From a bacterium (GTDB lineage: Bacteria; SAR324; NAC60-12): 40,251 nucleotides of DNA. Where the stretch lies: NCBI GenBank assembly GCA_965233585.1, contig CBDDTI010000207.1:1-40251 (forward strand), written 5' to 3'. Position numbers and translations under genes: made by a program. Positions 2,033 to 40,251 of the stretch are shown piece by piece; position 1 is the stretch's first letter; every line of letters starts with the position of its first letter. The notes under the pieces were generated by a model, which was not told the origin of the DNA, made no database searches, and saw only the letters and a program-made list of their open reading frames with translations.

Positions 2033-2115
2033 CCTGGTGGTCTTACCCCGGACTATCCTGGTATAGTTTGTACAGATTACCAGTCCTGGTGGTCTTACCC
2101 CGGACTACCCTGGTG
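2033..2115 (+). repeat. Direct repeat pair cctggtggtcttaccccggacta, 52 bp apart
   Basis: Two copies of the extended GGTCTTACC motif (cores at 2039 and 2091) just inside the left inverted repeat. Confidence 0.85.
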
Positions 2116-2549
2116 TACAAAACGGTCCTGTTATCTAGTTTTGTATAGATTTTAATTTTATGCGCTGAAGAACAAGAAGGCCGAACAAAAAAACAACAGC
2201 GCATTGGGGATAGTCATTGGGCAAGGGGGTTGGTTTTCTTTGGTTCGGAACAACATTTGACCATGTGGCATAGATGACACGGTTGTTTTTTTAAAACGTT
2301 ATTTGCACCGACATGGCTGAAACTGCGAGTGTTTCATGCGTGGTAGTTTGGGCTCGTTCATGCTTCATGTGTTTGACTTTGAGTTGAGAAAATAACAGTA
2401 GCATGGGCAGACATAAGCAAACACATACATGGACTGGAGCACCGTTTTAGTTTAGCACATACCATGTACCCTGAGCATTTCACTATTATAATGCCCGCTT
2501 ATGATAGTCGAAAATAACCTCCAGCACAGAATCCAGTGTTCGTCGCGCC

Positions 2550-3678
2550 ATGTCGTGGTGGTCGTCCTCCTGTTCCTGGTCCGAGAGCCCGTGGCGTGGC
2601 CAGGATTGGGATGATGGTTACAGTCGTCAACAGTGGGGCGAGGGCAGCGGGTCTTGGCAGTCCTGGTGGTCTTACTCCGGATGGGCCTCCGGATCCGCGG
2701 GTAGCGCCGGAAAAGGCAAAGGGAAGGAGGAGTCACAACCGAAGAGGCTTCGTCATGAGCAGGCCCCGACCATTGGATTTGACATAGAAAAGGAGGACGA
2801 AGAGTACGTGTATGCGTCTGTCCCTTGGGTCATGAGCGACTACAAGAACCAATGTTTGAGGCCAGTCATCGCGGAAATTGAAGAAATGGGTTGCGTTTTC
2901 AAGATGAAGGTCAGAGTGGCCCAGAAATGCTCCAGGGTGAGCATTAGAGGCAAAGAAGCAAGGAATGCTTGGAAATATTTCTTGGATAGCACGAGGAAAC
3001 TTTTGCCAGAGAAATTGCCTGAGTTTCCAAAAATGTCACATGTTCAAATTCGCCCATATGGTCAAAGACGACGACGACGTGAAAGACGAGGGGGGAACAG
3101 AAGTGAAGGCCGGCCGGGGCGGTGACTGAAGTTCTTATCACAGCGTTCGTAGTCAGTGCCCTGTCAAACTTGCATGTGTTCTGGGGATGCCAAATCTTGG
3201 CATAATGATTCATTTTTGTTTTTTTTTTTTCGCAGTTTGTGCATCTGATCCTTTTTTTTGGGTTATCGTTAAAACAAATACATCTGTATATCATGCATTC
3301 ATGTGTATATCATGTTTGTCACGTGGATTGTCTGCCTGCCAGGACGAACCCGATTGGGACGCAGATGATGACAAGGACGAAGACGAGGACTTGCCAGCGG
3401 CTTCGGGGCAGGCAGCTCCGGTCACCACACCCCGCCGGTCGCCGAAAACGTTCACAGGCAAAAGCAAGTGGCAAAAAAAAAGCGATGGCTGTGATGATGC
3501 ACTGGAGGCTGAAACAGAACCCAATTTAAGTGTGTCCACTGATAAGACCGGGTGCCTGCTGGTCACAGATCAGACAGGCAGAATCATCACAAGGCTCATG
3601 CCTGAAGCACAAAACGAGTCCATGGGCCAAGAAATGGAGGGGTCAAAAATGTATCGTTTGGCTCAAAAAATTGCAAAA
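2550..3678 (+). pseudogene. 5' part of the interrupted cargo gene: W/S/G-rich N-terminus, possible KH-like segment, acidic linker; probable GC-AG intron 3109-3342
   Basis: ORF 2550-3125 (MSWWSSS...IAEIEEMGCVFKMKV...RVSIRG). The exon from 3343 (DEPDWDADDD...MYRLAQKIAK) joins in frame to 30506 once the insert is removed. AAG|GC donor and CCAG|G acceptor; joining exon 1 needs a 1-nt frameshift near 3050-3060. Confidence 0.65.
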
Positions 3679-4410
3679 AACCTCTGTTCTTTGATTGTGA
3701 TAGTTTGGTTTTTGAAAATGATAGTTTCATTTTGGGTGAAACAATGCAGTTGTTTTTTGCTTTTCAATTTGGGGATGGCTTTCCAACATGTTTCTTTTCA
3801 TTTTCTAGGGATAAGTTTTCATGCTAAAATTGAAACCTGGAGAGGTGGGGGCAAGTCAGAACAAAAAGACATGCTGTAATTCAAACAACAAGTATCATGA
3901 TTACTGAACCAAACACACGCACATACACAAAGTTGTCATGCTTAAATTGAAACCTGAAGGGGTGGGGGCAGGTCAGAACAAAAAACATGCTGTAATTCAA
4001 ACAACAAGTATCATGATTATGAACCAAACACACGCACATACACAGACACACTGCCAATGACCATCAAGTATCATGAAAATATAAATATATACATACATGT
4101 ATTTATATATATACTTAATCAATGGTCATGCACATATGATACCAATATAGTGTCACCAAGAGTCATGCACATATGTCACCATCACAAATCATAATATACC
4201 ATCCAGTGTCCCCCAGTTGTCATCCACTTGTGATACCACCATGCACACATGTCATGAACATAAATATGAGACCATTAAATTGTACCTGCAGGTTTCCTGG
4301 ACAGGTGATGCCGTTGCAGCAGCCTTCAGCTGGGGATGGTGGGGATAACGTCCCTGAACAAGGGACTAGCCCTGAACAAGGGCATCATAACCCCTAAAAT
4401 AATGGGCTTC

Positions 4411-4610
4411 AATTCCAAGACTTGGCATTCCAGGCCTTGGCAATTGAATTAAGACATCAAATTCAATTCCAAGACTTGGCGTTCCACGCCTTGGCAATTG
4501 AATTAAGACATCAAATTCAATTCCAAGACTTGGCGTTCCAGGCCTTGGCAATTGAATTAAGACATCAACTTCAATTCCAAGACTTGGCATTCCAGGCCTT
4601 GGCAATTGAA
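4411..4610 (+). repeat. 54-bp tandem repeat, about 4 copies (mirror at ~29378-29580)
   Basis: aattccaagacttggc(a/g)ttcca(g/c)gccttggcaattgaatt at 4411, 4465, 4519, 4573. Confidence 0.9.
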
Positions 4611-6659
4611 TTCGTATCCGTTCCAAGAAAAGGGTTAAACAAAATCTGTCCCGTAGCTGGCAAATACATACATACACCTCCCTTTCATTTTCAAAGTTGT
4701 GAGAATTCATCAGGAATAATTCCAGTCTAGATTTTTTCATATTCTTATTTTCACAAATGAGTTGGATGACTATATGCATAGTTCCTTTTTTTGTCTGGTG
4801 CGTGGCATTTTTGAGGCTTGGTGTGATCTACAGGTGTTCAATGCATATACATGACTATACTCATACACTTCTAGTGGATTGCATGCTCCAACCATCAGGT
4901 TCCCAAATGTGGTTGTAGGAATGGAGCTGCATAGGAACCTAAATACCGACTGATTTGACATTAGGATTTCAAATGGCAGACCTTCAACCAAATTAAACAA
5001 AAACACACTGTTTTTGAAGACATGATTAGATATGAATAGTTGTGACTAGTGTAACGATGGAACAGTTTGAATTTGCTTACTATGGTCTTTGCACCAAAAG
5101 GTGTCGAACTTTAGCTGCTCTTGACAGAAAACACATTGTACCAACAGGGCACTGTTACTCTTCTAGATAAACCATACTCTTAGAGGGACATTCCATCATG
5201 CCTCCCTTGGGGATTTCCATTCAAGGTTCCAAATGCCCAAGAGGAACAGAATTGCTTGTTTGCTTCTCTTGGGCTTCAATTTCAATATGATGTTGTTATT
5301 GATGATGATTATTAAATGTGGAAGCTGAACATGAAATTCAGACTTGGTCATTTTCCAAGTCTGCATAATCTCTATGGTTCGGTCTCCCAGAAATAGTGAA
5401 TCTTAAATGCACTTCAAGACTTGGCCTCTCAAGTCTTGCACTGACAAACGTGATCACTGAGACTTTAAGGTTTTTCTCGATGTGATGCAAATGAGTTCTT
5501 CAAAAGTTCAAGGCTTGAATCCAAGTCCAACCACTCATGTTTGTCTCAATTGGCTACACTTCCCAGGTCTTTCACATATGGTTGATTCAGGGTAGTTACC
5601 ATTAACATGGTTCAGAACTTGGCTGTATCAGTATTACTTTTTTGTCCTTTCATGACCTGGTCTTTCAAGACATGAACACATTTTTCAAGACTTGGCATCC
5701 CAAGTTTTGAAACAAAAAGGTAAGAGTTCACCCTTAACTTGTCCAAATGCATTGCACCAAGTTCTGGATTTGATTGGACTTGGCATTCCAAGTCTGGAAC
5801 TCAACTTGACCCATCTTGTTAACTATTTGACCTTCCAAGTCTTCAAGCTCAAGACTTGGGTTTTTGTTGCAAGGTTTTTTGCCTTGGCTCACCAATGAAG
5901 TTAGTCTTTGCGACTTTTGAAAAATCATAGGTTTCAACACTTGCTACCGCCCCGAGCCTGAAAACTTGCAAACAAGCTGTTCTGTAGTTTGATACTTGTT
6001 ATGTTTCCTGTTGGGTGTCCAGAGTGGTAAAGATTGGTCTTGTGCTCACGACTTGGAACTCCAAGTCTGGAGCCCAAGAATGATATATTGAAGTGTTCGA
6101 AATGATGTTTTTCCACTTCCAATTTTTAACCCCTCCTAACATTTTACAACCATGTACTAAACTGTGTAACGAGCGGAAACTTTATACCTGTTTTTTTTCT
6201 GCCGTATGTGGGGCTGTGCCCGCATGATTCTTTACACATGATGCCATCTTAAAACTTGGCTTCTCAAATTTTGAAACCATTTGGTGTTGTATGCTTGCAC
6301 ATGCCTTTTACAAAAGACACAATGTGGAACTTCATGACATCATGCCATCTTCAAGACTTGGCTTCCCCAGTCTTGAAACTGTTTGCAGCTAGTTTTTGCT
6401 AACAATAGACTGTGGACATCCAAGGCATGAACACGATGGGTTGTTTTTCAAGACTTGGCATCCCAAGTTCTGAAACGTGACAATTTTTCAACTCATGCCC
6501 CTAACTTGACAACGGTACCAAGTGTAACACCCATCCAGATTTGGCAGTCCAAAGCGGTAGGGATGGGCATTGTGCAGCTTAAGAATGGTGCATTGCAAAA
6601 TTTGGCCTCAAAGTGTGAAAATGAGGTTCCTGAGAAAATGGTTTAGAAACTTGCCACTC

Positions 6660-8876
6660 TTGCCTTCCCAAGTCTTGAATCCTTTTGGGGCAAAGAATTT
6701 CAACATTAGACCCTTGCCACGAATTATGTCTTTCATGATTTGGTCTCCCAAGACATGAACACAAGTGAACATGATTGTCAAGACTTGACAGCCGCAGGTC
6801 TGAAATCTTACACCTTTTGTTTGAAGACTTGGCATGCCAAGTTTTGAAATGTTACATTTTTGCAACTCCATGTCCCCAAGTCTTGACAATGACTGCACTA
6901 TTCAAGACGTGGCTTTCCAAGTCTTCAAACTTGTCGGGGTAACGAATTTCAACATTAGACCCTTGCCGAGAATTATGTCTTTCATGACTTGGCCTTCCAA
7001 GACATGAACACAATTGGAAAAAGTTTTTCAAGACTTGGCAGCCACATTTCTGAAATCTAACACCTTGTGTTCAAGACTTGGCATGCCAAGCTTTGTTATG
7101 TTGTTACATTTTTTTTGCAACTCCATGTCCCCAAGCCTTGACAATGATTGCCCTATTCAAGATTTGGCTTTCCAAGTCTTGATTTTTTTTTGACGGTATA
7201 GAATTTCTTCAGTATAAGTAAGATTTACTGTATGTCTTTCATGACTTTGTCTTCCAAGACATGAACACAAGTGAAAATGATTGTCAAGACTTGGCAGCCA
7301 CAGGTCTGAAACCAAGTCTTTTTCTCTCAAGACTTGGTATCCCAAGTTTTGAACTGCTACATTTTTGCAACTCCATGTCCTCAAGTCTTGACAATGATTG
7401 CACTATTTGAGACTTGGCTTTCCAAGTCTTGAAACTTTTTGCTGTATAGACTTTCAACAGTATAACAAAGACTTATGTCTTTCATGACTTGGTCTTCCAA
7501 GACATGAACACAAGTGAAAATGATTGTCAAGACTTGGCAGCTGCAGGTCTGAAATCCTGCACCTTTTTTTCACGACTTGGCATGCCAAGTTTTTAAACGC
7601 TGCATTGTTGCAACTCCTTGTCCCCAAGTCTTGACAATGGTTGCACTATTCAAGACTTGGCTTTCCAAGTCTTCAAACTTTTCGGGGTAAAGAATTTGAA
7701 CATTAGACTCAAATAAGAACTTTCATGACTTGGTTTTCCAAGACGTGACCACAAGTGAACATGATTGTCAAGACTTGGCAGCAACAGGTCTGAAATCTTA
7801 CATTTTTCTTTCAAGACCTGGTTTGCCAAGTCTTGAAACGTTACGTTTTTTGGCAACTCCATGTCCCCAAGTCTTGACAATGATTGCCCTACTCAAGACT
7901 TGGCTTTCCAAGTCTTGATTTTTTGGCGATATAGAATTTCAACAGTATAAGTAAGATTTATGTCTTTCATGACTTTGTCTTCCAAGACATGAACCCAAGT
8001 GAAAATGATTGTCAAGACTTGGCAGCCACATGTCTGAAACCAAGTCTTGAACTGCGACATCTTTTTGCAACTCCATGTCCCGAAGTCTTGACAATGATTG
8101 CACTATTCAAGACTTGGCTTTCCAAGTCTTGAATCCTTTTGGGGCAAATAATTTCAACATTAGACCCTTGGCAAGAATTATGTCTTTCATGACTTGGCCT
8201 TCCAAGACGTGAACACAAGTGAACATGATTGTCAAGACTTGGCAGCCACCACAGTTCTGAAATCTTACATTTCTCTTGAGACTTGGCAATATCCCATGTC
8301 TTGACATGTTACATTTTTTGGCAACTCCATGCCCCCAAGTCTTGGCAATGATTGCACTAGATATTCAAGACTTGGCTTTCCAAGTCTTGAAACTTTTTGG
8401 GGCAAAGAATTTCAACATTTGACCCTTGCCAAGAATATGTCTTTCATGACTTGGTCTTCCAAGACGTGACCACAAGTGAACATGATTGTCAAGACTTGGC
8501 AGCCACAGGTCTGAAATCTTACATTTTTCTTTGCTACAATTTTGCAACTCCATGTCCTCAAGTCTTGACAAAGATTGCACTATTCAAGACTTGGCTTTCC
8601 AAGTCTTGAAACTTTTTGCTGTATAGACTTGCAGCAGTATAACAAAGGTTTATGTATTTCATGACTTGGTCTTCCAAGACATGAACACAAGTGAAAATAT
8701 TTGCCAAGACTTGGCTGCCACAGGTCTGAAATCTTACATAGTTCTTTTAAGACTTGGCATGCCAAGTTTTAAAATGTTACATGTTTGCAACTCAGTGTCC
8801 CCAGGTCTTGACAAATAACTGCACTATTCAAGACTTGGCTTTCCAAGTCTTGAAACTATTTGCAGGAAACAGTTTG
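6660..8876 (+). repeat. ~245-bp satellite, about 9 diverged units rich in CAAGACTTGG/CCAAGTCTTG
   Basis: Recurring unit ...gcaactccatgtccccaagtcttgacaatgattgcactattcaagacttggctttccaagtcttgaa... Confidence 0.92.
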
Positions 8877-10941
8877 ATAATGTTTGGCTTGCGCTTGTTG
8901 GTGCTTGTAGCCGCTGCTGCTGCTGCCCCTGATGATTCACCCTCAGCTCGGTATGCATTGCCCTCCTTGTTGAGAGCAGCATTGTGCTGCTGAAGCACCT
9001 TCATCCATTCATCCCGCACTTCTGGAATGGTGAGTTTCTCCTCCATCGCATCCAGGAAGGCGGCTCTGAGAGGAAGTTCATTCGATGCACTTGGAAATGT
9101 GCATGTGAAATCAGCAGAATTCAAACTGGGCATGATAAGATTTTCTGCGTAAGTCGACAATGGCTCCCAATTTGGAACGACTGTGATGCCTTCTGTGGCT
9201 AGCCTGAAGCCGCCTCTTCAGGGCGACACAAAGCCAATTCGCAACTTTCGCCGCATCGACCTTCCTGTTGGCGCCATTTGGATCACGAGTATTGGCCTCG
9301 GCCCAACAAGGCCGACACAAAGCATTGAAGGCCACTTTGTGTTGGAGGACAGCCGCATGATGGCTTCAGCCATGCTGTGGTCATAGGCAAAGGTGTCAAT
9401 GATGCAGCAGCCCACTGAGCCATCAAGGCCAAGACCAAGCAAAAGGCCCTGTAGCCATGCAGATGGCAAAGAAAAGCCTGACAGCCATTGCTTTCGCCTG
9501 CTGGCTCTGGACAAATCCATGACTCCTGCAGAAGTCTTGAAGTCACGCCGAGGGTCGACGTAATTCCTCACTGAATTCATCTGCACCGTGATGTCCTTGG
9601 AGGATGGAGTCAACTGTCGTTTCCAAGCTGCAGACTTGGCAAACACACTGACATAATCACCTTCTTCCTGCAAGTCACTAATGATTGCACATGAAAAACT
9701 TGTGTACACCAGGTCGGTATGACTGTGGTGGATAACTTGAATGGTCAAACATCACAGTGACTTCACGCAGCACGAGTCGGTGCTCTGGCATCTTCAAAAG
9801 TTCCATCATCTTGGCAGCTGTATTCGCAATTTCACCCTCATCACATGCGTTGCCATATCCACCAACAGTCGGGCATGCAAGGACCAAGCATGTGTTTGCT
9901 GGTGATGCTGCGATCAAACCAGCATACTCCTTCACAGCTGTCACTGTGTTCTTCCAGCCATCATACCCCAAGGTTGAAAAATTGAGCCAGTAGATCTTGA
10001 GAAACTTGTTCTCAGCCAGACCCTTCTCAGCTGCAAAGCGATGGATTGATGCCTCATAGAATGTCGTTCCATGGCCACATTCTGAAAGATCTCGGACTGG
10101 GAAGTTGCACTCTTGCATGGCATTGATTGCAGCACGTTGAGCCTCACGCTGTTTCTCAAGCATTTCTGCACGTAGACCCAGACCGACCTTCTGAAAGTTT
10201 TCAACGCCAAGCTGTTACTCCTTGAACTTGGTCTCTTCTTTTTGGAGCTTTGCAACGGCCTTGACCATCTCAGCTTTCTGTAGATCCAAGTTGGCTTTCT
10301 GCAGGTCCAAGTTGGGCCCCAGGATCCCCTCTGCAACACCATAGTCAGCCAAGAATCGGAAGTCGCCAACTTGCAGGGCTGGGGACTGGATCCGGATCTC
10401 CTCCATCATCTCAGTGTCCAGGTAACTGCGGACAAACGTCAACTCACAAGCTTCCAGCTGTGCATCTGTGAGCACCTTCTCGAATGCCGGGCGAAAGTGT
10501 GCAAACAAGCAGCACATTTCCCTGAGTCTCCGGAATTAGTAAATTTAGGTCGAGCTAAATTTACGTAAATGGGAGCAGTTTAGGTAAAACATTTACTAAT
10601 TTATTTTTCCACCTAAATAAAAAATCAAATTTAGGTTACGACCTAAATTAATTTACTGATCGACCTGAATTAATTTACTAATCGACCTAAATTTTTGGAT
10701 GTTGCATTTTTACTTAAAACTAGTTAGTTTTGTTAGCATTTTGCATGTGGGGTTGTTACAGAATCATCAAATTTTGCTGTGATTTTGCATGCGTTGCCCT
10801 AAGTCTGCAAACCTAGTAACTTTACTAATTTAGTAAACTTACTAATCGGGAGGAGACTGCGATTCTTTTTTGGCCAAGTCATCCAATATTAGTAGATTGT
10901 GTGAACAATGAAAAATGCACCAAAGGTGCATCAAACATGCC

Positions 10942-11010
10942 TGTTGTTGTTGTTGTTGCTGTTGCTGTTGTTGTTGTGGTCGTCGTCGTCGTCGTTGTTG
11001 TTGTTGTTGT
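10942..11010 (+). repeat. (GTT/GCT/GTC)n microsatellite, longer than its counterpart in copy 2 (18753-18780)
   Basis: Direct reading; explains the poly-Thr ORF 10879-11106. Confidence 0.9.
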
Positions 11011-12749
11011 TCTATCTATATAGTTGCCATGCATCTGATACATGGGGAAGAATCTGCTAACAACATTTTGCAAATTTAGTATATGCTGTTTGTTGAGAAT
11101 GTTCACAAGTAAGCCTCTGTCAAAAACACATGATTTTTGCTAAACTGTATTACGTGTAAGCTAGATTGATGCGATAAAGAAGGCCAGAATCTTAGCAAGT
11201 GACCACTCAAGTTAAAAAACCAACTATTTGGGGGAACCTACATTGGGATTTACATGAGGTATCTGTATTATATCAAGTGTGATTTTTCTAGTGAAATTTA
11301 CATAAGATAATTACATTGGAATTTACACGAGTGACTGCGGAGCATTCCAGTTTGGGATGAAAAACATGTAGATTGCAATCACATTAAAACAAATCATATA
11401 TCAAAGCAGGAAGAACTAAACCATAGCTATGAAAGCTATGCTTTTTGATAAAGAACAAATATAGGGGGGTATTGTTCGTTTTGTTTTTCAGCCTGGTTTC
11501 TTGGTTTGTGTGGTTTTTCTGATTTGGTCTCTTGGCTTTAGTGGCTTTTGGTTTTTATGACTCATAAAGTGTGCTGCAATTGCTTTTGCGGTTTTTGTGT
11601 TTTTTCGGATTTTGTAGTTTTTGTAGCTGTTGTGATTTTTATGGTGTGTGGCTCTTGTGGCTCTTGGTTTCTTCGCCCTTTGGGGTTGTTTTGGTTCGTT
11701 GGCTTTTGCGGTTTCTTGGTTTTTGTGCTTTTCCCTCTCTGAATTTATATGCATGTGTTTGCGAAAGGGATTAACACATGTTTTCAACAAGTGTCCTAAC
11801 TTGCCCTTTTCCAAGTTCTGAAAACAGTATTTCAGGACACTTGTTGAAATTTATTGTCCAACTATTTCTACTTGATTTGTGTTTCACAACAAATAATCTG
11901 TGGGGAAAAAGGGGTGCTCAGTTCTTCATTTGAACTTACATGGGACCAATAGGAAAACCAAAACAAATGAACGGTATTTCAGAAGAGATTCAATTTCACA
12001 TTGCCTTCATTTGGGTTTACTTGAGCTAGCATTCAGTTTACATGGCATGAGTGTTTGCACAGTGGACTCTATTTATTTGAGACTGCTTTTAGGGACCCTG
12101 CATTCACTTAACTTTACTTCAGACTGCGCTGGTGGCTGCACTTGGACTTTATACTTGAGAACAATTACAATGAGTTTGCTTTTGAAAACAACTCCAATGA
12201 ACTTTACCCAAGAGGAAATCCAGTGAACTTTACTTGGGAACAACTCCAATGAACTTTACATATCTGAACAAAAAGAACTTTACCTGAGAACCCTTTTTAA
12301 GACTGCTCAAGATGATATTGGGGTCACGTCCAGTTAACTTGGTTTGAAACCATTTCCGTTGAACTTTTGGTCAATCCTATCTTACAGAAACAGTTTTCTT
12401 TTTAGATTCAACACGCCACCTGAATCTTCATGAGATGCCTCATCTCATCATCAAATGCATTCAGCCTGTCATCTTGTCTACATGTTTCTTTTGGAATTCA
12501 ATGTCATTACTTGTGAAAAACATTAGAACTATACTATACAAGGTTGCTTGCGACTTTCATTCTTAAGACTCATGTATTCCACCGCAGTTCAAATTGCAAA
12601 AACATATGAAAACTATTTGGAGTTATCTTGAATACAGGTTTTGATGTATTTTTATATTTACGTTATGGTTTCACGTATAGACTCTTGTTTTTTTTTGTGG
12701 GGGTCACAACACATGGTTCTTGTACACCAGGCCTTCAGGAAATCCCTTT

Positions 12750-23196: not shown

Positions 23197-23315
23197 CACC
23201 TTGGCAGACCAGAGTTGTCACGCAAAGAAACACAATGTAGTTATTTTGAATTTATGCTCCTTAAACTCTGATTCTGTTTGGGGATGACAGAGAACCACAC
23301 TGCATCATGGTACAA

Positions 23316-28200: not shown

Positions 28201-30501
28201 GCAATGCATTTGGACAAGTTAAGGGTGAACTCTTACCTTTTTGTTTCAAAACTTGGGATGCCAAGTCTTGAAAAAATATGTTCATGTATTGAAAGACCAA
28301 GTCATGAAAGGACAAAAAAGTAATACTGATAAAGCCAAGTTCTGAACGATGATAATGGTAACTGCCATGAATCAATCATATTTGAAAGACCTGGGAGGCG
28401 AAGCCAATTGAGACAAACATGAGTGGTTGGACTTGGATTCAAGGCTTGAACTTTTGAAGAACTCATTTGCATCACATCGAGAACAACCTTAAAAGTCTCA
28501 GTGATCATGCTTGTCAGTGCAAGACTTGCGAGGCCAAGTCTTGAAGTGCATTTAAGATTCACTATTGTGCCAAAGCAATTTCTGGGAGACCAAGCCCAAA
28601 TAGATTTTGCAGACTTGGAAAATGACCAAGTCTGAATTTCATTTTCAACTTCCACATTTAAAAACCATCATCAAGAACAACATCATATTGAAATTGAAGC
28701 CCAAGAGAAACAAACAACCAATCATGTTCATCTTGGACATTTGGAACCTTGAACGGAAATCACCAAGAGAGGCATGATGGAATGTCCCTCCAAGAGTATG
28801 GTTTACCTAGAAGAGTAACAGTGCCCTGTTGGTACAATGTGTTTTCTGTCAAGAGCAGCTAAAGTTCGACACCTTTTGGCGCAAAGACCATAGTAAGCAA
28901 ATTCAAACAGTTCCATTGTTACACTAGTCACAACTATGCATATCTAATCATGCCTTCAAATCCATGAGTGAAACCGTGTGTTTTTGTTTAATTTGGTTGA
29001 AGGTCTGCCATTTGAAATCCTAATGTCAAATCAGTCGGTATTTAGGTTCCTATGCAGCTCCATTCCTACAACCACATTTGGGAACCTGATGGTTGGAGCA
29101 TGCAATCCACTAGAAGTGTATGAGTATAGTCATGTATATGCATTGAACACTTGTAGATCACACCAAGCCCCAAAAATGCCACGCACCAGACAAAAAAAAA
29201 CTATGCATATAGTCATCCAACTCTTTTGTGAAAATAAGAATATGAAAAAAATCACCTTCTAGATTGTAGTTATTCCTGATGAACTCTCACAACTTTGAAA
29301 ATGAAAGGGAGGTGTATGTATGTACTTGCCAGCTACGAGACAGATTTTTGTTTAACCCTTTTCTTGGAACGGATACGAATTCAATTGCCAAGGCCTGGAA
29401 TGCCAAGTCTTGGAATTGAAGTTGATGTCTTAATTCAATTGCCAAGGCCTGGAACGCCAAGTCTTGGAATTGAAGTTGATGTCTTAATTCAATTGCCAAG
29501 GCCTGGAACGCCAAGTCTTGGAGTTGAATTTTATGTAATTCAATTGCCAAGGCCTGGAATGCCAAGTCTTGGAATTGAAGCCCATTATTTCAGGGGTTAT
29601 GATGCCCTTGTTCAGGGCTAGTCCCTTGTTCAGGGACGTTATACCCACCATCCCCAGCTGAAGGCTGCTGCAACGGCATCACCTGTCCAGGAAACCTGCA
29701 GGTACAAATTAATGGTATCACATATATGTTCATGACTTGTGTGCATGGTGGTATCACAAGTGGGTGACAACTCGGGGACACTGGATGGTATTTTATGATT
29801 TTATGACTCTTGGTGACATTATATTGGTATCATATGTGCATGACCCTTGATTAAATATATATATATATATATTTATGTTCATGATGCTTGATGGTCATTG
29901 GCAGTCTGTGTGTGTATGTTTGTGTTTGGTTCAGTAATCATGAAACTTGTTGTTTGAATTACAACATGTTTTTTGTTCTGACCTGCCCCCCCTCCAGGTT
30001 AATTTAAGCATGAAAACTGTGTGTATGTGTGTGTGTTTGGTTCAGCAATCATGATTCTTGTTTTTTGAATTACAGCATGTTTTTTGTTCTGAACTGCCCC
30101 CACCCCTCCAGGTTTCAATTTAAGCATGACTACGGTGTGTATGTGTTTTGTTTGGTTCAATAATCATGATATTTGTTGCTTGAATTACAGCATGTTTTTT
30201 TGTTCTGAACTGCCCCCACCCCTCCAGGTTTCAATTTAAGCATGACTACTGTGTGTATGTGTTTTGTTTGGTTCTGTGATCATGATACTTGTTGTTGGAA
30301 TTACAGCATGTCTTTTTGGTTCTGACCTGCCCCCCCCCTCCAGGTTTCAATTTTAGCATGAAAACTTATCCCTAGAAAATGAAAAGAAACATGTTGGAAA
30401 ACCATCCCAAAATGGAAAAACAAAAAAATACTGCATTTTTTCAGCCAAAATGAAACTATCATTTTCAAAAACCAAACTATCACAATCAAAGAACAGAGGT
30501 T
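25201..30501 (-). repeat. Right arm of foldback element: ~243-bp satellite (25201-27220), semi-unique middle, 54-bp repeats, four ~120-bp repeats (29900-30360)
   Basis: Reverse complement of 3679-8876, with scattered substitutions and different repeat copy numbers. Confidence 0.92.
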
Positions 30502-30505
30502 AAAA

Positions 30506-32554
30506 GAAGCAATTGAGAAATGCGGTCTCTCCTCTGGACCGGAGCTCATGCTGAAGTCTCACGTCTCGATGTTGAAGAATTCTTCACGAGAGGACCTCAG
30601 CACGATGTTGACCTTCTGCACGTGCTGCTTTGGACGAGGGTGGCAACTAAGGATTTCCCTGCCAATCAACGTGGCCATCATGGAAAAGTATGAGATGACG
30701 ACGCGGTTTTGCATCAGCCTTTTCCGGCCAACGGAAGACCAATTATACAATGTTAGTGTTGGTCTTACCACCTTTCCATTGTCGAAGGAGTTGGTGCAGG
30801 AGGTGGAGAGGGATTTTCAAGAAACCAAAAAATGGATCTTGGAAAACTGCCAAGAAGAACTCAGATCTGTCAAGTTGGTCTGCAGCGTGCACAGGAGGCA
30901 GTTCTTCCACAGCTCCGTGTGCAAAAACACGTGCCATAAATTGGCCTTGTTGGAGGCTTGGCGCAGAGGCCGGGAGTCAGAAGGCGACGAAATTAGTGAA
31001 GATCTGGCGCCTCCACCGATAGCTCGGTTTGACGCTTTGTGGGCATTGAAGCAAAGGATCCCGCCCAGCTACATGCTCCGGGATGAATTCAAAGACAAGA
31101 AACACATCCTTTGCAACTTGGATGCTGACAACGTCTTGTCTGCAGATTTTGCCGCGCAAATTGATAGTCATTTTGGCAAAACCACCGGTCCTGGTGGTCT
31201 TACCCCGGGCTCTGGTAATTATGGAAACGCTCCTGTGTTCGGTGGCCGTTGCACTGGCGGAGACGACCTCGGATGCTGTGGCCGTGTCTTGATCAATGAC
31301 CGAGGGTTCCTTGAGTTGCAAGGATACGACGAATCATTTCATCCCACGGGTTTTCAAGATATTGATTTGTGGACAAGGACCAAGACCAAAGCAGGGCAAG
31401 CGCCAAAAATGAAGTTCTTTGCTGGATGGTCTGTGCCGAATTGCTCGGACAACGCCTTCAAGGCAGTAGCTATGGAAAAGAACAGGCTCACCGGCTGCAA
31501 CCTCAGGTGGGGACAGCAAGATACTGAAAATCAGGCTGATGCAGCCAGAAAACTTGCTGAGGGGAAGTGGTGGCGCAACAGCAGTGATGCAACAATTTCT
31601 TGCAGAGACATGTGGGAGTTGATGCTGAGCTTGGGAAATGCAGACCCGGAGGGCAAAACCCTGCTGCTGACAGCCAGAAAGCCTGAGCAGGATGATGGTC
31701 TTACCTCTACTGCGTTGAAACCACCGCCGCCGCCTCCAAAGGCAGCCCCGTCCGAAGCAGCCTCAGTTTCTCAGCAGCCGATGCCTCCCAGGCCTGCTCG
31801 ACCGGCACCTGCAAGCAAATATGGTAAAAAAAAGGAAATCGAGTCCAAGCTTCCTCCCTGCTTTGTGAGGGTGATCGCATGTGGAGCAGGCAACCTCGGC
31901 AAGGTACTCAAAAATGCCTGTCGCGTCAGAAACTTGCCAAGTCGGGTTTGGCAAGCAACCTTGGACTTGAGACATCAGTGCGACCAATTCGAAGCCGTGG
32001 AAGAGGAGTGCCTCAAAATGTGCCTGGACCACGTGGATGGCCTAATGATGGGCAGCCCAGGGCAGAGCAGTCACAGCATCATCTTCTGTGATTGCAGGGA
32101 CAAGGGCCTGCAAGGTTGGGATGACCCGGAAGTCATGGATGGGTCAGTGAAATACCACGTAGGAACATTCCCGGTGAACCTGAAGAACTTTGCGCGAGGC
32201 GAGGTATTCAAACGTGAGCTGCACAGGGTTCGACGGTACATCTTGTCCCGGTTTGCGTTGGACCCCAATGCTTCTCCAGGGGTGACAGTGGTTGCTTATT
32301 GCCGTGGAGGCAACCACCGCAGTGTAGCTTTCGCTTACCTGCTTCAACATGTCCTGAGTCAGCAGACACTGGTCACCTGCGCATCGAATGATGTGATTTG
32401 CTTGACCTAGTTGGCTGGGCACTGGTCGGATCGAAAATGTGGACGATGCAATTTTTGTCGCCACGAGAGGCTGCCTCCCAGAGAGGCAGCAATGGTTCAA
32501 GACGCATTCGGCTGCGCGCTTAGCGTGTGGCGCGAAGCGCCATTACACTTATGA
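30506..32554 (+). pseudogene. 3' part of cargo gene: GT-A fold glycosyltransferase (GT2/GT7C-like), Pro-rich linker, RapZ C-terminal-like domain, Cys-rich tail after an in-frame TAG (32408-32410)
   Basis: LTFCTCCFGR...FHSSVCKN...ILCNLDADN (DxD)...GCCGR...LQGYDESFHPTGFQDIDLWTR match GT-A/GT7C motifs. DCR...DP...HVG...VAYCRGGNHRSVAFAYLL resembles the RapZ-C CTGGxHRSV motif. The frame continues past TAG as LAGHWSDRKCGRCNFCRH... to TGA 32552-32554. Confidence 0.8.
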
Positions 32555-33102
32555 GTGGCTAGTGGTCTTACCCTGCACTTGACAGCCTAGTGGTCTTACC
32601 CTTCTGTTTGTGCAGGTGCCGCCCACAGTGGCTGCTGGCCTTCTTTTGATTGGCAATGACCAGTCCGATAGGCCAAAGACAGCTTCGAATAAAATGATTT
32701 GCGCCAAAAAATGGGTAGCTGGGGCGGTGAGTCCAGGTTGGACTTGACAGAGACTTATTTTTGTTGATTGTTTTGATTGTTTTCCATTTTTGGTCAATAT
32801 TATTTGTTATGATTCGTTTTTTGACACGTGTTACTTTGTCAATCTGCCGTCCATGTCGCATGTGATTGATGTCTATAGAGGGCTGAAGATAATGATAAGA
32901 ATCGTTTTGAAAGTATAGTTGGTGTAATACAAGATATTGATATCATATTATGCACTATACGGTCAATACCCCAGTCGGTCATGGCCATGACAGACATATG
33001 TAAATGTGCAGAAATTTTCGGCTCAATCAAATACGAGGCATAGCCGATGTTTACTGGGGTTGTAGTAACATCGTCTCGGGGATCAGACTGATGCCAAGCT
33101 GA

Positions 33103-33869
33103 ATGCCGAAACTCAATATTGACCAAGGCCTTCATCTTCTGTCGCCACGATCCTTGGAAAAACATTTTGGCCATTGCAAGAAAAGAAAATGTTCTTTGTG
33201 TTTCTGGGCGCAGAAGGGCCCCGAGTGTCAAAAAACAACGTTGTTTCCTCCGGGCAGTCAAAAAAAAGACCCTGGTTGGCATGCGCCCGTATGCAGACTT
33301 CAGCTGACAAGAAATGGAAAGTTCGTTGGGGTTGTGTGCTTTGCAATCATTTCCGAAATTCAGAAAAATATCAGTATCGCCCGATGGTCTTACCTCGACG
33401 ACAGCAGAAAAATCAAGCAAGCAGACAAAAAAGAGTCTGCCGTCCATCTCATGGGGTTCTTTTCAAATTCCAGTGATGTTGTTTAAAAGAAGGAAGACGC
33501 AAGGTGTGCAGCAACATGCAAAAACCAGATGTCATCAACGAGCGTTGATGCATTGGATTGATCAAGCGCCTTCAGCATCAAAATCATCTCAATGCGAGTC
33601 AGAGTCACAGGTAGGACCACCAAAAGAACAGTGGGACAAAATTTTGAAGGGACTGCGCACGGGGAAAAGTGCGCACTGACAAAACGGCCTGGATTGCCAT
33701 GGAGACCTGCAGACGTACGAGCTGCAGCTGCCAAAGCGGACGGAAACTAAGGCTTCTTCAAGAGCTTCAAAGTGATGCTCTTGAAAATTTTAATTTGAAA
33801 GAGGTTTTGGCGCATACGTCTGCGTTACCACCAGCTGCCATAATTAAATCTGAAATTAATGCTATTTGA
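33103..33869 (+). pseudogene. Frameshifted gene with TTF-type (hAT-associated) zinc-finger-like motif; no catalytic domain seen
   Basis: Across three frames: H...CKKRKCSLC; RPWL...WGCVLC; WGSFQI...QHAKTRCHQRAL. The first shift falls in an A-run near 33260. Confidence 0.55.
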
Positions 33870-33942
33870 CACATTGCTGACTGAGGTGGGGTAAAAGGGC
33901 ACGAGACTGCTTCCATGTTTTTAATTTTGCATAAGTTCAGTC

Positions 33943-34458
33943 AAAGTTCAGTCAACATGGTAACTACAACAAAAAAAATCGAAAATTGAGCGACGTTAAT
34001 TCATATGCCCAACTTTATGGCTCCCTTACGCATTGCCAGACCGGTCCGGGGCCGCGAAAGAGGGTAAAAGTTCAGTCAACATGGTAACTACAACAAAAAA
34101 AATCGAAAATTGAGCGACGTTAATTCATATGCCCAACTTTATGGCTCCCTTACGCATTGCCAGACCGGTCCGGGGCCGCGAAAGAGGGTAAAAGTTCAGT
34201 CAACATGGTAACTACAACAAAAAAAAATCGAAAATTGAGCGACGTTAATTCATATGCCCAACTTTATGGCTCCCTTAGGCATTGCCAGACCGGTCCGAGG
34301 GCGCGAAAGGGAGCCATAAAAACGCGTAAGGGAGCCATAAGTTGCAGCGCCGCTGCTACTTATGGCTCCCTTACGCATTTTTATGGCTCCCTTACGCATT
34401 GCCAGACGGGTCCGAGGGCGCGAAAGGGAGCCATAAATTTATGGCTCCCTTACGCATT
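33943..34458 (+). repeat. ~124-bp tandem repeat x3, followed by direct and inverted copies of tatggctcccttacgc
   Basis: Units start at 33943, 34067 and 34191; the inverted form aagggagccataa occurs at ~34307, 34328 and 34424. Confidence 0.9.
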
Positions 34459-34629
34459 GAGCGTTGGTACCGCTGTACCCTAGTCACATGTTTTCGTCCC
34501 GGTCCCGGTGAGTTAGGTGATTTCTGTTTCTGGTATCTAACTATGGGCAGTAGTAGGCGCGCAGTATTTGAGAGGGCAGTGGCACGCGCAGCCTTTTAGA
34601 AGCACCTTAGGTCATCTTGAACTTGGGCG

Positions 34630-36230
34630 GTGCCAAAAAAATCTGAGCCAAACAGCGTAAGGAAAAAACATGCACCTTATTTAAAAAGACAGTGGCCAAA
34701 AAAAATCGGAGCAAAACAGTTGAAGAAAAAATGGCACCCTAAAAACGTAAGATAAAAAACCAGCAATCTATAAATGACTGTTGCCAAAAAAATCGGAGCA
34801 AAACAGTTGAAAAACATGGCACCTTATAAAAATGACTGGCGAAAAAAATCTGAGCCAACCTAAGGATAAACAAACACACCTTATAAAAATGACTGCTGCG
34901 AAAAAAATCGGAGCAAAACAGTTGAACAAAAAATTCACCTTATAAAAATGACTGCGGCCCAAAAAATCTGAGCCAAACAGCGTAGGATAAAAAAAATGCG
35001 CCTTAAAAAAATGACTTGCCAAAAAAATCGGAGCAAAGCAGTTGAAAAAAATGGCACCTTATGAAAATGACTGTGCCAAAAAAAATCTGAACCAAACAGC
35101 GTAGGATAAAAAAATGCGCCTTATAAAAATGACTGTTGCCAACAAAAATCGGAGCAAATCAGTTGCAAAAAATGGCACCTTATACAAATGACTGTGCCCA
35201 AAAAAATTCTGAACCAAACAGCGTAGGATCAAAAAAAATGTGCCTTATAAAAATGTATGTTGCCAAAAAAAATCGGAGCAAAACAGTTGACAATAAAAAT
35301 TGGCACCTTATAAAAATGGTTGCGGCGAAAAAAATCTGAGCCAAACAGTGTAAGATAAAAAAATGCGCCTTATAAAAATGACTGTGGCCAAAAAAATCGG
35401 AGCAAAACAGTTGAAAAAAAAGGGACCTTATAAAAATGAAAGCGGCCAAAAAAAAATTAACCAAACAGTGTAGGACAAATAAAAAATGTGCCTTATAAAA
35501 ATGACTGTTGCCAAAAAAATCGGAGCAAAACAGTTGAAAAAAATTGCACCTTATAAAAATGACTGGGGCCAAAAAAATCTGAACCAAACAGTGTACGATA
35601 AAAAAAAATAAAAATCCGTATAAAAATGACTGTTGCCAAAAAAAATCGGAGCAAATCAGTTGCAAAAAATGGCAACTTATAAAAATGACTGTGCCCAAAA
35701 AAATCTGAACCAAACAGCATAGGTAAAAAAAAAATGCGCCTTATAAAAATGACAGTGGCCAAAAAAATCGGAACCAAACAGTTGAAGATAAAAAGTGGCA
35801 CCTTTGAAAAATGACTGTGGCGAAAAACATCTGAGCCAAACAGTGTAATTAAGATTAAAAAAATGCGCCTTAAAAAAATGATTGTTGCCAAAAAATTGGA
35901 GCAAAGCAGTTGAACAAAATGCGCCTTATAAAAATGACTGCGGCGAAAAAATCGGAGCAAAACAGTGTAAGATTAAAAATGCGCCTTATAAAAATGACTG
36001 TGGCCAAAAAAATCGGAGCAAAACAGTGGAAAAAAATGGGACCTTTTATAAGCGGCCAAAAAAAAATCAACCGAACAGTGTAGGATAACAAAAGGTGCGT
36101 TATAAAAATGACTGTTTCCCAAACAATCGGAGCAAAACAGTTGAAAAAAAATGGTACCTAAAAAAAAAACTGTGGCCAAAACAATCTGAACCAAACAGCG
36201 TAGGATTAAAAAAATGTGTCTTATAAATGT
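34630..36230 (+). repeat. A-rich minisatellite, ~58-60-bp monomers alternating as a ~118-bp dimer
   Basis: ccttataaaaatgactg...ccaaaaaaaatc followed alternately by ggagcaaaacagttg and tga(a/g)ccaaacag(c/t)gta. Confidence 0.92.
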
Positions 36231-36263
36231 GTCTTAGGTTCAATAGCAGGATTGTCAGGTAGA

Positions 36264-36350
36264 ATGCCGCCGAAGAAAGGTGAGAAGGAAACTCTTCCGG
36301 ATGGCGTTCCTGCCAATTGGAGTGCTTGGCGACTGTCACGAGATGAACAG
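36264..36350 (+). CDS. Possible short first exon (MPPKKGEKETLPDGVPANWSAWRLSRDEQ) of an unresolved gene
   Basis: Coding-like GC-richer stretch ending in CAG|GA, a donor class known in dinoflagellates; downstream exons not identified. Confidence 0.25.
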
Positions 36351-37030
36351 GACCGCAGGGAGTCAAGTAGCATAGACGTCAGTCACATGCATATGCATGT
36401 CAGATCACATGCATGCCAGATCACATGCATGCAGACACGTAAGAACAAAAAAAAAAGAACAAAAAACAAAAAACAAGAAGAATCTTCTGAGAACGGGTCT
36501 TGGTGAATTTTGAACGTGAAATCCGGACAGCTGAGCGAGACATATCACCAAGACCCTGATGGTCTTACCTCTGGTCAACTGAGGTGATGTTTTGATTTGT
36601 TGCTTTGCTCGATTGGACCCTGTGAGATTCAGATACGAGGTCTAATTGTTGCTGTGACCAGCGCCTTTGCCCTTTTCGTGTCAAATTTCGCTGCTCAACA
36701 GAAACAGCATTTTTGGAGCCGTGACCCTCTGATCTCTTGGCCAAAAAAAGGAATGTGGTGTGCGTGTGTGTGTGTGTGTGCGTGTGTTTGCGTGTGCGTG
36801 GGTGGTGAGGGAACCGCAACCTAAGTGACAAGGAGATGTCTTTGATTCATGAGTTGATGGATAAACTTTTTGATTCATGTGATTCATGTGTATATTTGGG
36901 TAATTTCAACATTGCAGGGTCATATGCATGTTTAAAACGTCCATGATCTGATGGTAGTGTTTTTTGTGACAGCAGTAGCTGCAAAGGCTCAAACTGTTTC
37001 AGGTCAAATTTGTGACTGCCGCGTTTCGCC

Positions 37031-37633
37031 ATGTCTGCGTACTCAGCATCGGGTCAGTCTCAAATGCCGGCATTGACGATGGCACATGATGATGACGCAA
37101 GCTCGAACAGAAGCTGGAGCCTGGTGGGTTCCAAACACGGCGCCACAGTGATCCCGGGGGACAGTTCCAATGTTGAAGTGAAGTATCATCAGCAGCAATG
37201 GGACCGATCAGAATATCCTGGTGGTCTTACCCCGGTTGGTCATCCTAAAGACTTCACCCCGGGATTCATGGTGTGCTACACCACGCGCGGCGGCTCGGAG
37301 AACGACTGCCACTGTCCAAATTTGATTGTGGAAATCACGGGCCTTCCACTTTCAGACCCGGACATGACGTTCCTCGTGGACACTCATAAGATTGAGAGGG
37401 TGGAGGATATCAAATCCATTGTGCAATGGTGGGTGAGTGAAGGGTGCGTGGACCACGGGCTGGAAGCCACCGAGTGGATACCCAAATCGCATTGGGCACT
37501 CCACAGCATTGAGCGGGCAACCCCGCACAACATGCCCACAAAATACCTGAAGAAGACGGACATGCCGCTCAAGTTTTCCTGGCACACCTGGAGCCCATCC
37601 TACAAGAAAAGTCACAGCAGCGTCGTGGTCTGA
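37031..37633 (+). CDS. Intact intronless 200-aa ORF of unknown function
   Basis: ATG-to-stop ORF with coding-like composition and a globular-looking C-terminal half; contains the GGTCTTACC motif (GGLTP). Confidence 0.65.
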   Translation: MSAYSASGQSQMPALTMAHDDDASSNRSWSLVGSKHGATVIPGDSSNVEVKYHQQQWDRSEYPGGLTPVGHPKDFTPGFMVCYTTRGGSENDCHCPNLIVEITGLPLSDPDMTFLVDTHKIERVEDIKSIVQWWVSEGCVDHGLEATEWIPKSHWALHSIERATPHNMPTKYLKKTDMPLKFSWHTWSPSYKKSHSSVVV

Positions 37634-38671
37634 CCCGCCCAGGATTAAATGGCCATAGCAGCAGGGCTGTGGTCTTACCCACCCTGGCCCTGGAACGTCT
37701 CACTTTTGTGGTTGGTGAAAAAAAGTCCAAAGTGAAATAGTTTTATGTGCAACTTTTTAAAAAAATGCCAGCCTATCAAATGCAATTTTTGTTTTTGTTT
37801 ATTGGGACAGAACCACCAACCCAAAAACCACGCATCTTACGTCCGGTCTGACCCCAATAGACCCTTTTTAAGATTGCGATGCTGGACTTGTCAGTCCTCT
37901 TCCTGCGCAGCGATGGCAAAAATGTGATTACCTGACTCTGGGCGGAACGGACTGTTGCAATTCCAAACCCCCGTTGAACCGTTACTTGGGGATGATATGA
38001 CAATGAAGGTGTTGATGGTCAAAAAATAAAACAATGTTCAAATGTCATCTGCACGATGAAAGTGGTTACCGATGATCATCATAGTTGTTGCCATCCTGGA
38101 TCACTGACCCTTTAGTTCATACATAGGACATTCCCTTTCCCGGGGGCATGAGACCTCATACTCACACAAGGGGCCAGAAGCCACAAACTTGTGGAGGGGC
38201 CTCATAACCTTCTGAACAACCGGGAAGTTATATAAGATAATTGTAGAATGGATAAGCAGGGGCCTCAGACCACAAAACTTACGAGGGGCTCTGCTGAACA
38301 GAACCAACTAACTCGCAAGGGGCCTTTTAGCCAACAAACAACCGGTTTTTCAGTAAGTTCATTCAGCATGTGAAGGTTCAATGTGTGAGAAGGATGATGA
38401 TAATAATCATTAACCAAGATTCCCTTGAAGCCGTTTTTGTTTGGCCTGTCGCCGCTGATGTTTTCTGAAAGCCTCAGTGGGTGTTATATGAAATCAAATG
38501 AGTCAAACGTGTAATTGAAAGAATGCATTGAGCATGTCGTATGGTTCGTACGATATCAGAAACACGAAACATGGTGCGAAAAATACATCAAGAAAACGAA
38601 AAAAACAAGAACAATTACAACAATCATAGTCATCATCATGGTTCCAAAACAAGTTTCAGTAAATCCTAGTG

Positions 38672-40066
38672 CTACTCAGCAACATTACGGCTCCTGAATG
38701 CATGTTGCTTTGGCTGGCACTGGCTTTCTTGGTCTTTGACGCTACCCGACCGAGCAGATCCAGCTTCCGCGCTTGAGGTTGGTCTTGGCTCAGGACCGGG
38801 GGCCAGGGAAGACGTGTCTGCTCTTTCAAAATTTGTGTTTTCTTCCCCTTTTGGTGGTATGTTTGATGTGCAGTTGGGTTCACTTTCTGTGCCTTTTGCA
38901 GGGGTAAGACCACCATGTTGAGATTTTTCTTTTGAGTTTTTTTCTGTTTTTTCCTCCTTCTTACTTCTTTTGAAAGGACTTGGGGCGGACCCAAACTCTA
39001 GAGCTTCCTTCACTTCGTCGTCATGTGCATGACAATAGTGCTTCCGCCAAGTTCTGGCATCTGCGCGTTGCTGCACTTCTAAAATTGTGGTTTCAGTTGG
39101 CCTCTGCATTGATGGTTTGTCTTTGTTAAAAAGCAGTAGTGCCGAGCCTGTATGCCTCGTGGCACCGTGAACTGTCACACGGCTACCCCTATATTGGTTG
39201 CTTGGGTTCCATCTTCGTTGATGTGTCAATGCCCACATGACATCCCGGATACGGGTCACTTCATCAGACACCGATTGTCGGGCCATGTTCGGCCGGCATT
39301 TTTTTCTGCTATTGCTTTGAAACAGAAATGTTTCTGATGTAACGTCCAACATAAAATCGTCTTTGCGCAGAGGCTTAACATTTTCAAAAACTTTGGGATG
39401 CGAAGATTTAAATGGTTCCAAAGTCATGGGGCACTCCCACTTGAGACCCGTTTCGATTAATTCCTTCAGACCCTCAATGCTTGACTCTGAAATTCTAGCG
39501 CTCAGGCTTTCAGCACCCAATTTCCCTTGCCCCCGAAGTTTTTTATCCTCTTGTCTTTTTTGAAATAACACATGCGGAGCATCGTGGTCTTCTCCTCCGG
39601 TCAGGCGTATGTCTGTGCCTCATAACAGTAGCGTCTCAGATATGCGTCGAGATGTTACCAAAGCTAGCCATAATACTACGCAGTAGATTGGCCCTGCAAA
39701 GAATTGGGCGACCGCAAAAAACAAGTGTAACTGCTCTCTAGGAATGAACACATGTTGCTTTGCAGTTTTACTGTGTTTGTGTCCTTGGTTCCACGGCTTT
39801 GCAGCGGCTCTTTCCTTTTCATGTTTGTCCTGGTCCTGAGTCGGCAACGCCTTTTGTTTTGGGCGCGTTGTTTTTTCTTTGTTGCTTCGGGCTGTCTTCT
39901 GGGTAACACCGCAAGACGACGACGATTTTCGTTTCATTACCCTGTCCGAAACCTTTCTTTTTTGGTGTCTTGCTTTTTCTATGTTTTCCGGGTAAGACCG
40001 CGAAAAAACGACGATTTTCCCTTCATTATACTGTCCGTGCCCGAACTGTTTCTCGATTTGGCGCAT
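38672..40066 (-). pseudogene. Tyrosine recombinase (phage-integrase family catalytic domain), about 464 codons with one in-frame TGA at 39620-39622
   Basis: ORFs 39620-40114 and 38672-39571 are in the same frame. Box I-like LWLALVTSRRISETLLL*GTDI, candidate Lys in GQGKLG, FLF patch, box II-like VTVHGATRHT, and nucleophile-like WRKHY. Basic low-complexity N-terminus. Confidence 0.8.
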
Positions 40067-40100: not shown

Positions 40101-40148
40101 AAAGCCAGTTGCAAGGGGCAGATTTCGAACTTACCAATCGACCTGGGC

Positions 40149-40251
40149 CAACTTACCGAAGGGGGCGTCGGTAAGTTGGAACCTCTTTTCCCTTAAAAAC
40201 CTTCAAAAACATTGGAAAAACTTTGGAACTCAACACTGTTGTAATTTTTTT
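40149..40251 (-). repeat. Right inverted repeat of outer element, with palindrome CCAACTTACCGA-agggggcg-TCGGTAAGTTGG (40148-40179); runs off the window end
   Basis: Reverse complement of 1828-1930. Confidence 0.92.

Follow-up and report, generated by a model that had tools for sequence, protein, structure and literature searches.

The operator hairpin of the single-stranded RNA (ssRNA) virus MS2 carries a 5' bulge two base pairs below a short loop, above a lower stem of free sequence, and the same layout is predicted here for the copies of a nine-base word, GGTCTTACC, that recur in contig CBDDTI010000207.1 of assembly GCA_965233585.1 (40,251 nt; hereafter the window, meaning this whole stretch). 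The window is Symbiodiniaceae DNA, from a coral-symbiont-type alga. The copies lie in a mobile element that comprises a tyrosine recombinase gene, a gene for a ubiquitin-fold protein and inverted 11-8-11 sites. No published description of the element or its motif was found in a search whose scope ended before supplements and subscription papers, and a repeat-library entry could exist. Among the matches listed, the papers containing the exact 9-mer concern other subjects by title, and neither element nor motif is described in the available portions of PMC5890265, PMC12130899, PMC11572971 and 10.64898/2026.05.21.726589.

Among described systems, the hairpins at these copies (hereafter tags) would by analogy work most like dispersed packaging or operator hairpins. 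In ssRNA viruses, as in the present element, many small stem-loops with a shared motif run through coding sequence, and theirs are read by a protein of the same replicon (PMC4751978). The tags, too, are numerous stem-loops that have a loop motif in common and stems that covary. The differences are that the tags belong to a DNA element whose recombinase is of the tyrosine type, that no capsid gene was seen in the window or its partial relatives, and that the tags lie on both strands, switching with convergent genes in the window and in three of the 15 related loci examined (L002, L003 and L010; L001 is the window's own lineage). Because they follow convergent genes, the tags cannot all be packaging signals of one genomic RNA.

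Three other systems each share features with the tags, but the tags fail one defining feature of each. The VANC targets of Arabidopsis VANDAL elements are also short, family-specific motifs, partly tandem-duplicated, that differ between related families; they are bound as double-stranded DNA, are non-coding and have no described structure (PMC5735166), whereas the present tags are structured, strand-biased and mostly coding, so that the enrichment is family-specific in the same way while confinement to non-coding tandem repeats is lacking (45 of 74 copies lie in genes). Uptake sequences of Neisseriaceae form lineage dialects on a conserved core and are written into proteins in tolerated frames, and five such dialects are found here; they are genome-wide duplex words for transformation (PMC3630211), whereas the tags covary as hairpins, are restricted to one element family and lack genome-wide over-representation. 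Integron attC sites are strand-specific hairpins in which some bases are unpaired and the stem is poorly conserved, and they too lie close to a tyrosine recombinase. The tags are far shorter than attC sites and lie inside genes rather than between cassettes, and the RYYYAAC/GTTRRRY R box and the L box by which attC is defined (PMC7439510) are absent from the aligned tags.

As for the element itself, SymbioDIRS-Dnmt3 and other tyrosine-recombinase elements (PMC5890265) are likewise mobile DNA of Symbiodiniaceae, and some relatives of the present element carry a C5 methyltransferase. Unlike SymbioDIRS-Dnmt3, Crypton and Starship elements, it shows no reverse transcriptase or A-B-A-B repeats in the sequence seen, and it has a recombinase of the catalytic domain only and inverted 11-8-11 sites with accessory half-sites. 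The analysis below confirms the first observation and makes it richer, as the tag found in this undescribed dinoflagellate recombinase element is selected, structured and coded by lineage.

Distribution of the Nine-Base Word

An earlier reading of the window from its letters alone (the original prediction) had proposed that GGTCTTACC marks an outer element around an insert, and listed 13 exact copies. All 13 were recovered at the same coordinates and on the same strands, against 0.11 expected, and none of 100 shuffles attained this number. Post-hoc choice of the word does not explain the count, because the shuffle maximum is 4: in 20 triplet shuffles of the outer region, every 9-mer containing all four bases stayed at or below 4 copies. 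The three variants previously named (at 2668, 37627 and 37845) are present as well, together with five further one-mismatch matches (3541, 33610 and 39902 on the minus strand, 14038 and 21790 on the plus strand).

The insert (3679–30501) was said to be free of the motif, and it indeed holds zero exact copies, as does its second copy on contig C466. The remaining 746 contigs (approximately 12 Mb) hold 26 copies in total with at most 4 per contig. In these contigs, which come from a mixed bin and do not amount to a full algal genome, the word ranks approximately 94,600th among 9-mers, which is not the genome-wide over-representation expected of an uptake sequence. Expressed as a density, this corresponds to 1.13 copies per kb in the outer parts of the window and 0.002 per kb elsewhere, so that the word marks the element without an excess in the insert or the rest of the assembly.

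Covariation and the Predicted Hairpin

The flanks of the word covary, and GGTCTTACC is the constant tip of a predicted hairpin made up, from the top down, of a five-base loop whose last base is A, a GG/CC stem, a bulged base and a lower stem that is free in sequence as long as it is complementary. Positions are numbered outward from GGTCTTACC, with base −1 (T or C) left unpaired as the bulge. In this register −2 pairs with +1 and −3 pairs with +2 in all 13 exact copies, using six different lower stems (GG/CC, GA/TC, AG/CT, GT/AC, TG/CA and CG/CG), with permutation p-values of 0.0009 and 0.0005 on the 10 distinct flank sets; other registers are without such pairing. The same flank pairing is seen in 0 of 26 GGTCTTACC copies elsewhere in the assembly, in 6.8% of 2726 GGTNNNACC sites and in 2 of 92 copies across 29 viral loci. 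The contig of the window (C207) is also the sole one among 747 in which a GG..CC bulged hairpin is repeated with at least three lower-stem types.

The stem rule divides the variants, since those at 2668, 37627 and 39902 retain the stem and those at 37845, 3541, 14038, 21790 and 33610 do not, which gives 16 intact hairpin tags in the window. For 62 copies from several lineages, grouped into 42 flank clusters, 35 had both positions paired, where permutation gives 6.8. When 50 of the approximately 74 copies are aligned (tandem duplicates, the second type of L003 and L010 being excluded), the covariation is 0.48, compared to 0.15 when shuffled and no more than 0.17 when slid. Invariant in this alignment are the GG and the first C following the loop. 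The A at the loop end is probably a loop base, because it is retained even where its partner is C. Pairing continues past the first mismatch in 26 of 36 hand-picked representatives with intact stems (p = 4 × 10−5), which results in predicted irregular hairpins of approximately 25–35 bases. The hairpin structure is thus well supported by covariation.

Polarity and Coding Context

On the plus strand, the leftmost tags lie at 2033–2053 (core 2039–2047) and 2085–2105 (core 2091–2099), a non-coding tandem pair 52 bp apart with GG/CC lower stems. They are followed by a variant at 2662–2682, whose core at 2668 ends in T and so forms a G.U pair above a GG/CC stem, and which is read as Trp-Ser-Tyr in open reading frame (ORF) 2550–3125. 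Beyond the insert, three tags are written into the 3' part of a cargo gene, at 30755–30775 (core 30761, GT/AC, Gly-Leu-Thr), 31190–31210 (core 31196, GG/CC, GGLTP) and 31691–31711 (core 31697, GA/TC, DGLTS). Two more in 32558–32606 (cores 32564 and 32592, AG/CT) stand directly past the TGA at 32553–32555 that terminates the cargo ORF where 32408 reads G. The tag at 33380–33400 (core 33386, GA/TC) is read as DGLTS in ORF 33314–33679, which a minus-strand ORF overlaps, so that the choice of the true gene is inferred. At 36555–36575 (core 36561, GA/TC) the match with L002 extends over few bases and may be independent. The ubiquitin-fold gene contains a tag at 37217–37237 (core 37223, GG/CC, GGLTP) with a counterpart at the matching place in L002, and its end is marked in 37621–37685 by a variant at 37627 that spans the stop codon (CG/CG) and an exact copy at 37671 directly past it (TG/CA). 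The variant core at 37845 (37839–37859) is without a lower stem and is either broken or a chance match.

The remaining three tags are on the minus strand. One is read as GGLTP in the tail of the recombinase (38897–38917, core 38903, GG/CC), and one lies 54 nt upstream of the recombinase ATG (39985–40005, core 39991, C bulge, CG/CG). Between them, at 39896–39916, is an additional tag that the original prediction did not contain; its core at 39902 is GGTGTTACC, with a C bulge and a TG/CA stem, and its peptide CGVTQ is the counterpart of CGLTQ in L002.

Polarity was counted over 74 copies in seven sequences (L001, L012 and L014 being dropped as duplicates), with gene intervals drawn from ORF lists and tblastn and with dialect patterns chosen post hoc. 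Within genes, 44 of 45 copies are sense and 1 is antisense; outside genes, 22 of 29 agree with the nearest gene. All 17 window copies (the 16 tags and 37845) agree with theirs. Tag polarity follows gene direction, which accounts for the strand switch near 38 kb, where the genes of the window converge. The inward pointing and the switch noted in the original prediction are therefore real, but inward simply means the coding strand here and there is no fixed centre. Relative to the recombinase, one homologous tag even changes orientation between L008 (plus) and L009 (minus), and in L008 it is sense to a methyltransferase ORF.

It had also been proposed that the constraint acts on nucleic acid rather than protein, given copies in coding and non-coding DNA and in different frames. 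Both the placement and the conclusion are borne out. Most coding copies are read as Gly-Leu-Thr, and the five such tripeptides of three window genes are all encoded by one set of three codons (approximately 0.017 each by codon use), while across lineages tags are read in all three frames. Some tags of different lineages occupy matching places (the recombinase N-terminus, directly before the PWNK motif, and the stop of the small gene) and have intact stems there, with four-fold sites at saturation in comparisons of the window, L002 and L003. The recombinase core of the L008/L013 lineage has a tag in place of its usual Ser-His-Pro, with no indel, which shows that a cost to the protein is tolerated.

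Dialects in Related Elements

The related elements carry words of their own. L002 holds 17 copies of GGTCTGACC and 4 of GGTTTGACC in 6.5 kb, L003 approximately 20 copies of a C-bulged GGT(T/G)GG(A/T)CC type, and L008, L009, L013 and L014 a T-bulged GGCTG(C/T)ACC. An A-bulged form with a six-base loop is found in L010 (three copies, two of them with a stem) and L012 (one copy). Together with that of the window this makes five dialects in one element family, in which GG and CC are conserved and the loop-end A is common to the dialects. Cross-occurrence is limited to the word of L002, seen twice in the window and once in L001; no others were found. No motif excess was detected in L004–L007, L011 and L015. 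By a loose peptide test on a quick tree, the peptides GLT, VLP, TVGP, VAAP and GCT occur in a 25-row clade, several rows of which show none, and in P0009, whereas a 21-row clade is almost free of them. L010 also has six minus-strand copies of AGTAATCCT at 2432–5093, without a clear hairpin.

The original prediction linked the CTTACC core of the word to the arms of the terminal palindrome. This link did not hold up: L002 and L003 have arms identical to those of the window beside the recombinase gene and L008 and L013 have near-identical ones, yet all four differ from the window in motif. Because relatives keep the site and carry other dialects, the shared CTTACC is not the explanation. Tandem and inverted arrays with a CCCTTAC core occupy 33930–34490 of the window, and similar arrays with GGTCCTTAC occur in L008 and L013.

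Genes, Sites and Insert

The recombinase gene (38672–39937, minus strand) encodes a catalytic domain only, and the window copy is interrupted by a TGA at 39620–39622 that is absent in three other runs. The catalytic fold is present with R, HxxR-like and Y positions, and the protein matches PHROG integrases and no Pfam family. Its Foldseek top match is an integron integrase at a weak E of 2 × 10−3; integron integrases come fourth by VIA, by which the protein is not closer to them than to Xer-type enzymes, and it has no match to the NCBIfam integron model. The small gene (37031–37633, plus strand), with a C-terminal ubiquitin-like (beta-grasp) domain, is conserved in L002, L003 and L010 and encodes the candidate reader discussed below. 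The first exon of a large gene lies at 36264–36360 (plus strand); the full-length gene is present in L002 and L003 and is mostly missing in the window, presumably by deletion.

The left genes (2550–3678, plus strand) comprise ORF 2550–3125 and the 5' part of the cargo gene, which the insert separates from its 3' part (30502–32555, plus strand). The cargo protein (30548–32555) has weak matches to glycosyltransferase GT2 and to the RapZ C-terminal domain, both below cut-off, which are of interest since the host has hydroxymethyluracil DNA and 5-hydroxymethyluracil is a silencing mark (PMC11572971). Genes for C5 cytosine methyltransferases lie within two relatives of the element (L003, 7972–9192; L008, 3947–4600). 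No capsid, reverse transcriptase or RNase H gene was seen among the ORFs scanned in the window and the partly sequenced relatives, and no A-B-A-B split repeats in the sequence covered.

The 11-8-11 palindromic site on the left, likely the site of the recombinase, is at 1901–1930 (plus strand), at the inner end of an inverted repeat (1828–1930). The second, inverted site (40149–40178, minus strand) lies in 40128–40251, with an accessory half-site at 40128–40136 on the recombinase side and an outer repeat that runs to the contig end. The left site need not mark the left end of the outer element, since in three runs the stretch 1424–1900 outside this site has the depth of the interior. Three runs also show a single outer flank that continues, at the spacer, into the left interior as well as into the recombinase side, and the depths of flank and left interior are near equal (8.8/9.4 in X1, 24/25 in X12 and 57/58 in X3, with 9.9 in X1 and 30 in X12 for the recombinase side). 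Two identical arms would double the flank depth and are thus unlike what is observed; the pattern would be compatible with a middle part that can invert and a far flank that varies. Positions 1–1423 are 99.65% identical to 7146–8567, and since all four runs continue differently to the left of 1424, the junction there is either private to the window copy or a misassembly. A 117-residue ORF beyond the left site (1453–1806), also on a contig of a polyA run, has a ubiquitin-like look by eye only. A high-copy repeat of approximately 60/120-bp units (34547–36230) has a depth hundreds of times that of the element and is strong in a polyA run.

The unrelated 26.8-kb insert (3679–30501), which has inverted repeats of approximately 3 kb, is flanked by a 4-bp target duplication, AAAA, carries no tags and is absent from this position in other runs; its second copy on C466 has the target duplication TTGT. 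No transposase was identified in 3679–30501, one gene of which is related to a 1073-residue ORF of L004. Observed/expected CpG ratios are 0.70–0.81 in the outer genes, compared to 0.39–0.50 in three stretches of the insert.

Discussion

Our favoured reading, to which we assign a probability of roughly 0.45, is that the GGTCTTACC hairpins are RNA self-tags on the messages of the element, bound by a protein that the element encodes; a self-recognition role was already suggested in the original prediction and is still the best reading. A fixed loop and bulge on a free stem, in the transcribed strand and specific to the lineage, have by analogy the look of a protein-read RNA hairpin. The hairpin would form in RNA from the coding strand of the genes of the element, and the protein would recognise loop and bulge while requiring only pairing from the stem. 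Loop and reader would change together in each lineage, so that related elements would not cross-react. Acting message by message, the tags might aid the stability, export or translation of these messages in a host in which mobile DNA is silenced. Lineage-specific dialects hint that the reader is encoded by the element. The recombinase fits this role poorly, given that its likely site is the same across dialects. The lead candidate is the small ubiquitin-fold protein, which is conserved alongside the recombinase and has a type of domain that can bind a G-C-rich stem-loop (PMC6795144).

Several points weigh against RNA self-tags. The comparison of sense and antisense folding gives p-values of 0.09 and 0.39 (0.30 and 0.44 in a second set), G.U at the third lower pair is at expectation (8 vs. 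8.6), and the first two lower pairs are nearly all Watson-Crick, which also fits DNA. A competing fold is predicted at 2039 and at 37671, some copies share ancestry, and the dialect patterns were picked after the data were seen. Of the 29 copies outside genes, seven run counter to the nearest gene, including a group of four in L002 between two minus-strand genes, and the sense bias could partly reflect purging of the reverse word, which we take to resemble the splice donor consensus. Beta-grasp folds mostly bind proteins. Finally, an unrelated element on contig C499 has coding-strand hairpins of a different type, which would also fit a host reader.

The C499 pattern widens the phenomenon and raises the standing of a host reader, by which RNA tags would be read by a host protein or pathway, unrelated dinoflagellate mobile elements having converged on coding-strand hairpins that mimic host messages or dodge RNA-level silencing. 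On C499, GNRA-loop hairpins whose stems vary, 13 on the plus strand and 1 on the minus strand, are written into ORFs, no match was found there to any of ten query proteins, including the recombinase and the ubiquitin-fold protein, and within the present family GG/CC and the loop-end A are common to the dialects. Five lineage-specific loops and bulges in one family would nevertheless be hard for a single host reader, and the insert, L004–L007 and other contigs are without a GG/CC-type hairpin family, so we consider this unlikely. (Taken by itself, C499 shows 31 hairpins that share a single GNRA-type core and have lower stems of seven types; most lie on the coding strand, and its ORFs read them as Leu-Glu-Lys.) Folded DNA would be another substrate, as single-stranded or cruciform DNA, for example in the non-template strand while a gene is transcribed, with the recombinase or a DNA-modifying cargo enzyme as reader, in the manner of attC or as an anti-silencing mark. 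Near-strict Watson-Crick stems with no measurable strand preference in folding, the C5 methyltransferases of L003 and L008, a recombinase whose Foldseek top match (E of 2 × 10−3) is an integron integrase, an enzyme that reads folded strands with unpaired bases (PMC7439510), and, suggestively, the higher CpG ratio of the outer genes all point this way; we still hold it to be improbable.

It is also conceivable that no reader is needed, if an enzyme of the element caps or patches breaks with an invariant ten-base piece and the left flank is then copied into the right by fold-back synthesis. The Ser-His-Pro replacement in L008/L013, which without an indel needs several simultaneous changes, is the strongest point for such scars, and perfect stems of 2–7 pairs do begin abruptly at the core. 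Pairing that continues past mismatches and bulges, matching-position copies that persist in the dialect of each lineage across saturated lineages, and the slight decay of the window copies (13 of 17 exact) are against it, with no template or polymerase gene seen, and we regard scars as quite improbable. Closest to the original prediction, which named KOPS and uptake sequences, is a polarised double-stranded word of the KOPS, Chi, uptake-sequence or VANC kind, tied to the terminal palindrome and with the recombinase or a cargo protein as its binder. Its high, element-restricted density and its polarity would suit such a word, as would lineage dialects like those of Neisseriaceae (PMC3630211) and tandem-duplicated copies like those of VANDAL elements (PMC5735166). 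A plain duplex word is not supported, because its flanks should be unconstrained and are instead variable yet complementary, covarying as a hairpin stem; the palindrome arms stay constant in lineages with other motifs, and polarity follows genes rather than a replicon axis as for KOPS or Chi (44 of 45 in-gene copies sense, with orientation flipping between L008 and L009). This makes a duplex word very improbable.

Recurrent GGLTP, TVGP, VLP and VAAP peptides in proteins of Symbiodiniaceae can reflect signals in the nucleic acid rather than protein motifs, which should be considered in annotation. How dinoflagellates select genes for expression, and how mobile DNA escapes silencing in them, are poorly understood. 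With a short, defined and selected structure, natural dialects as built-in specificity controls and a candidate reader of approximately 100 residues, the question becomes tractable with oligonucleotides and one small protein. Taken further, and here we are distinctly more tentative than for the self-tags themselves, dinoflagellate mobile elements may possess an RNA "passport" system, in which dozens of hairpins peculiar to the lineage in the messages of all genes are matched by a ubiquitin-fold reader, and coevolved dialects block cross-use. If true, such a system would be a source of orthogonal hairpin-protein pairs like those of MS2 and PP7, and it would parallel the VANC anti-silencing of plants, but at the level of RNA and coded in structure, in a DNA recombinase element without a capsid.

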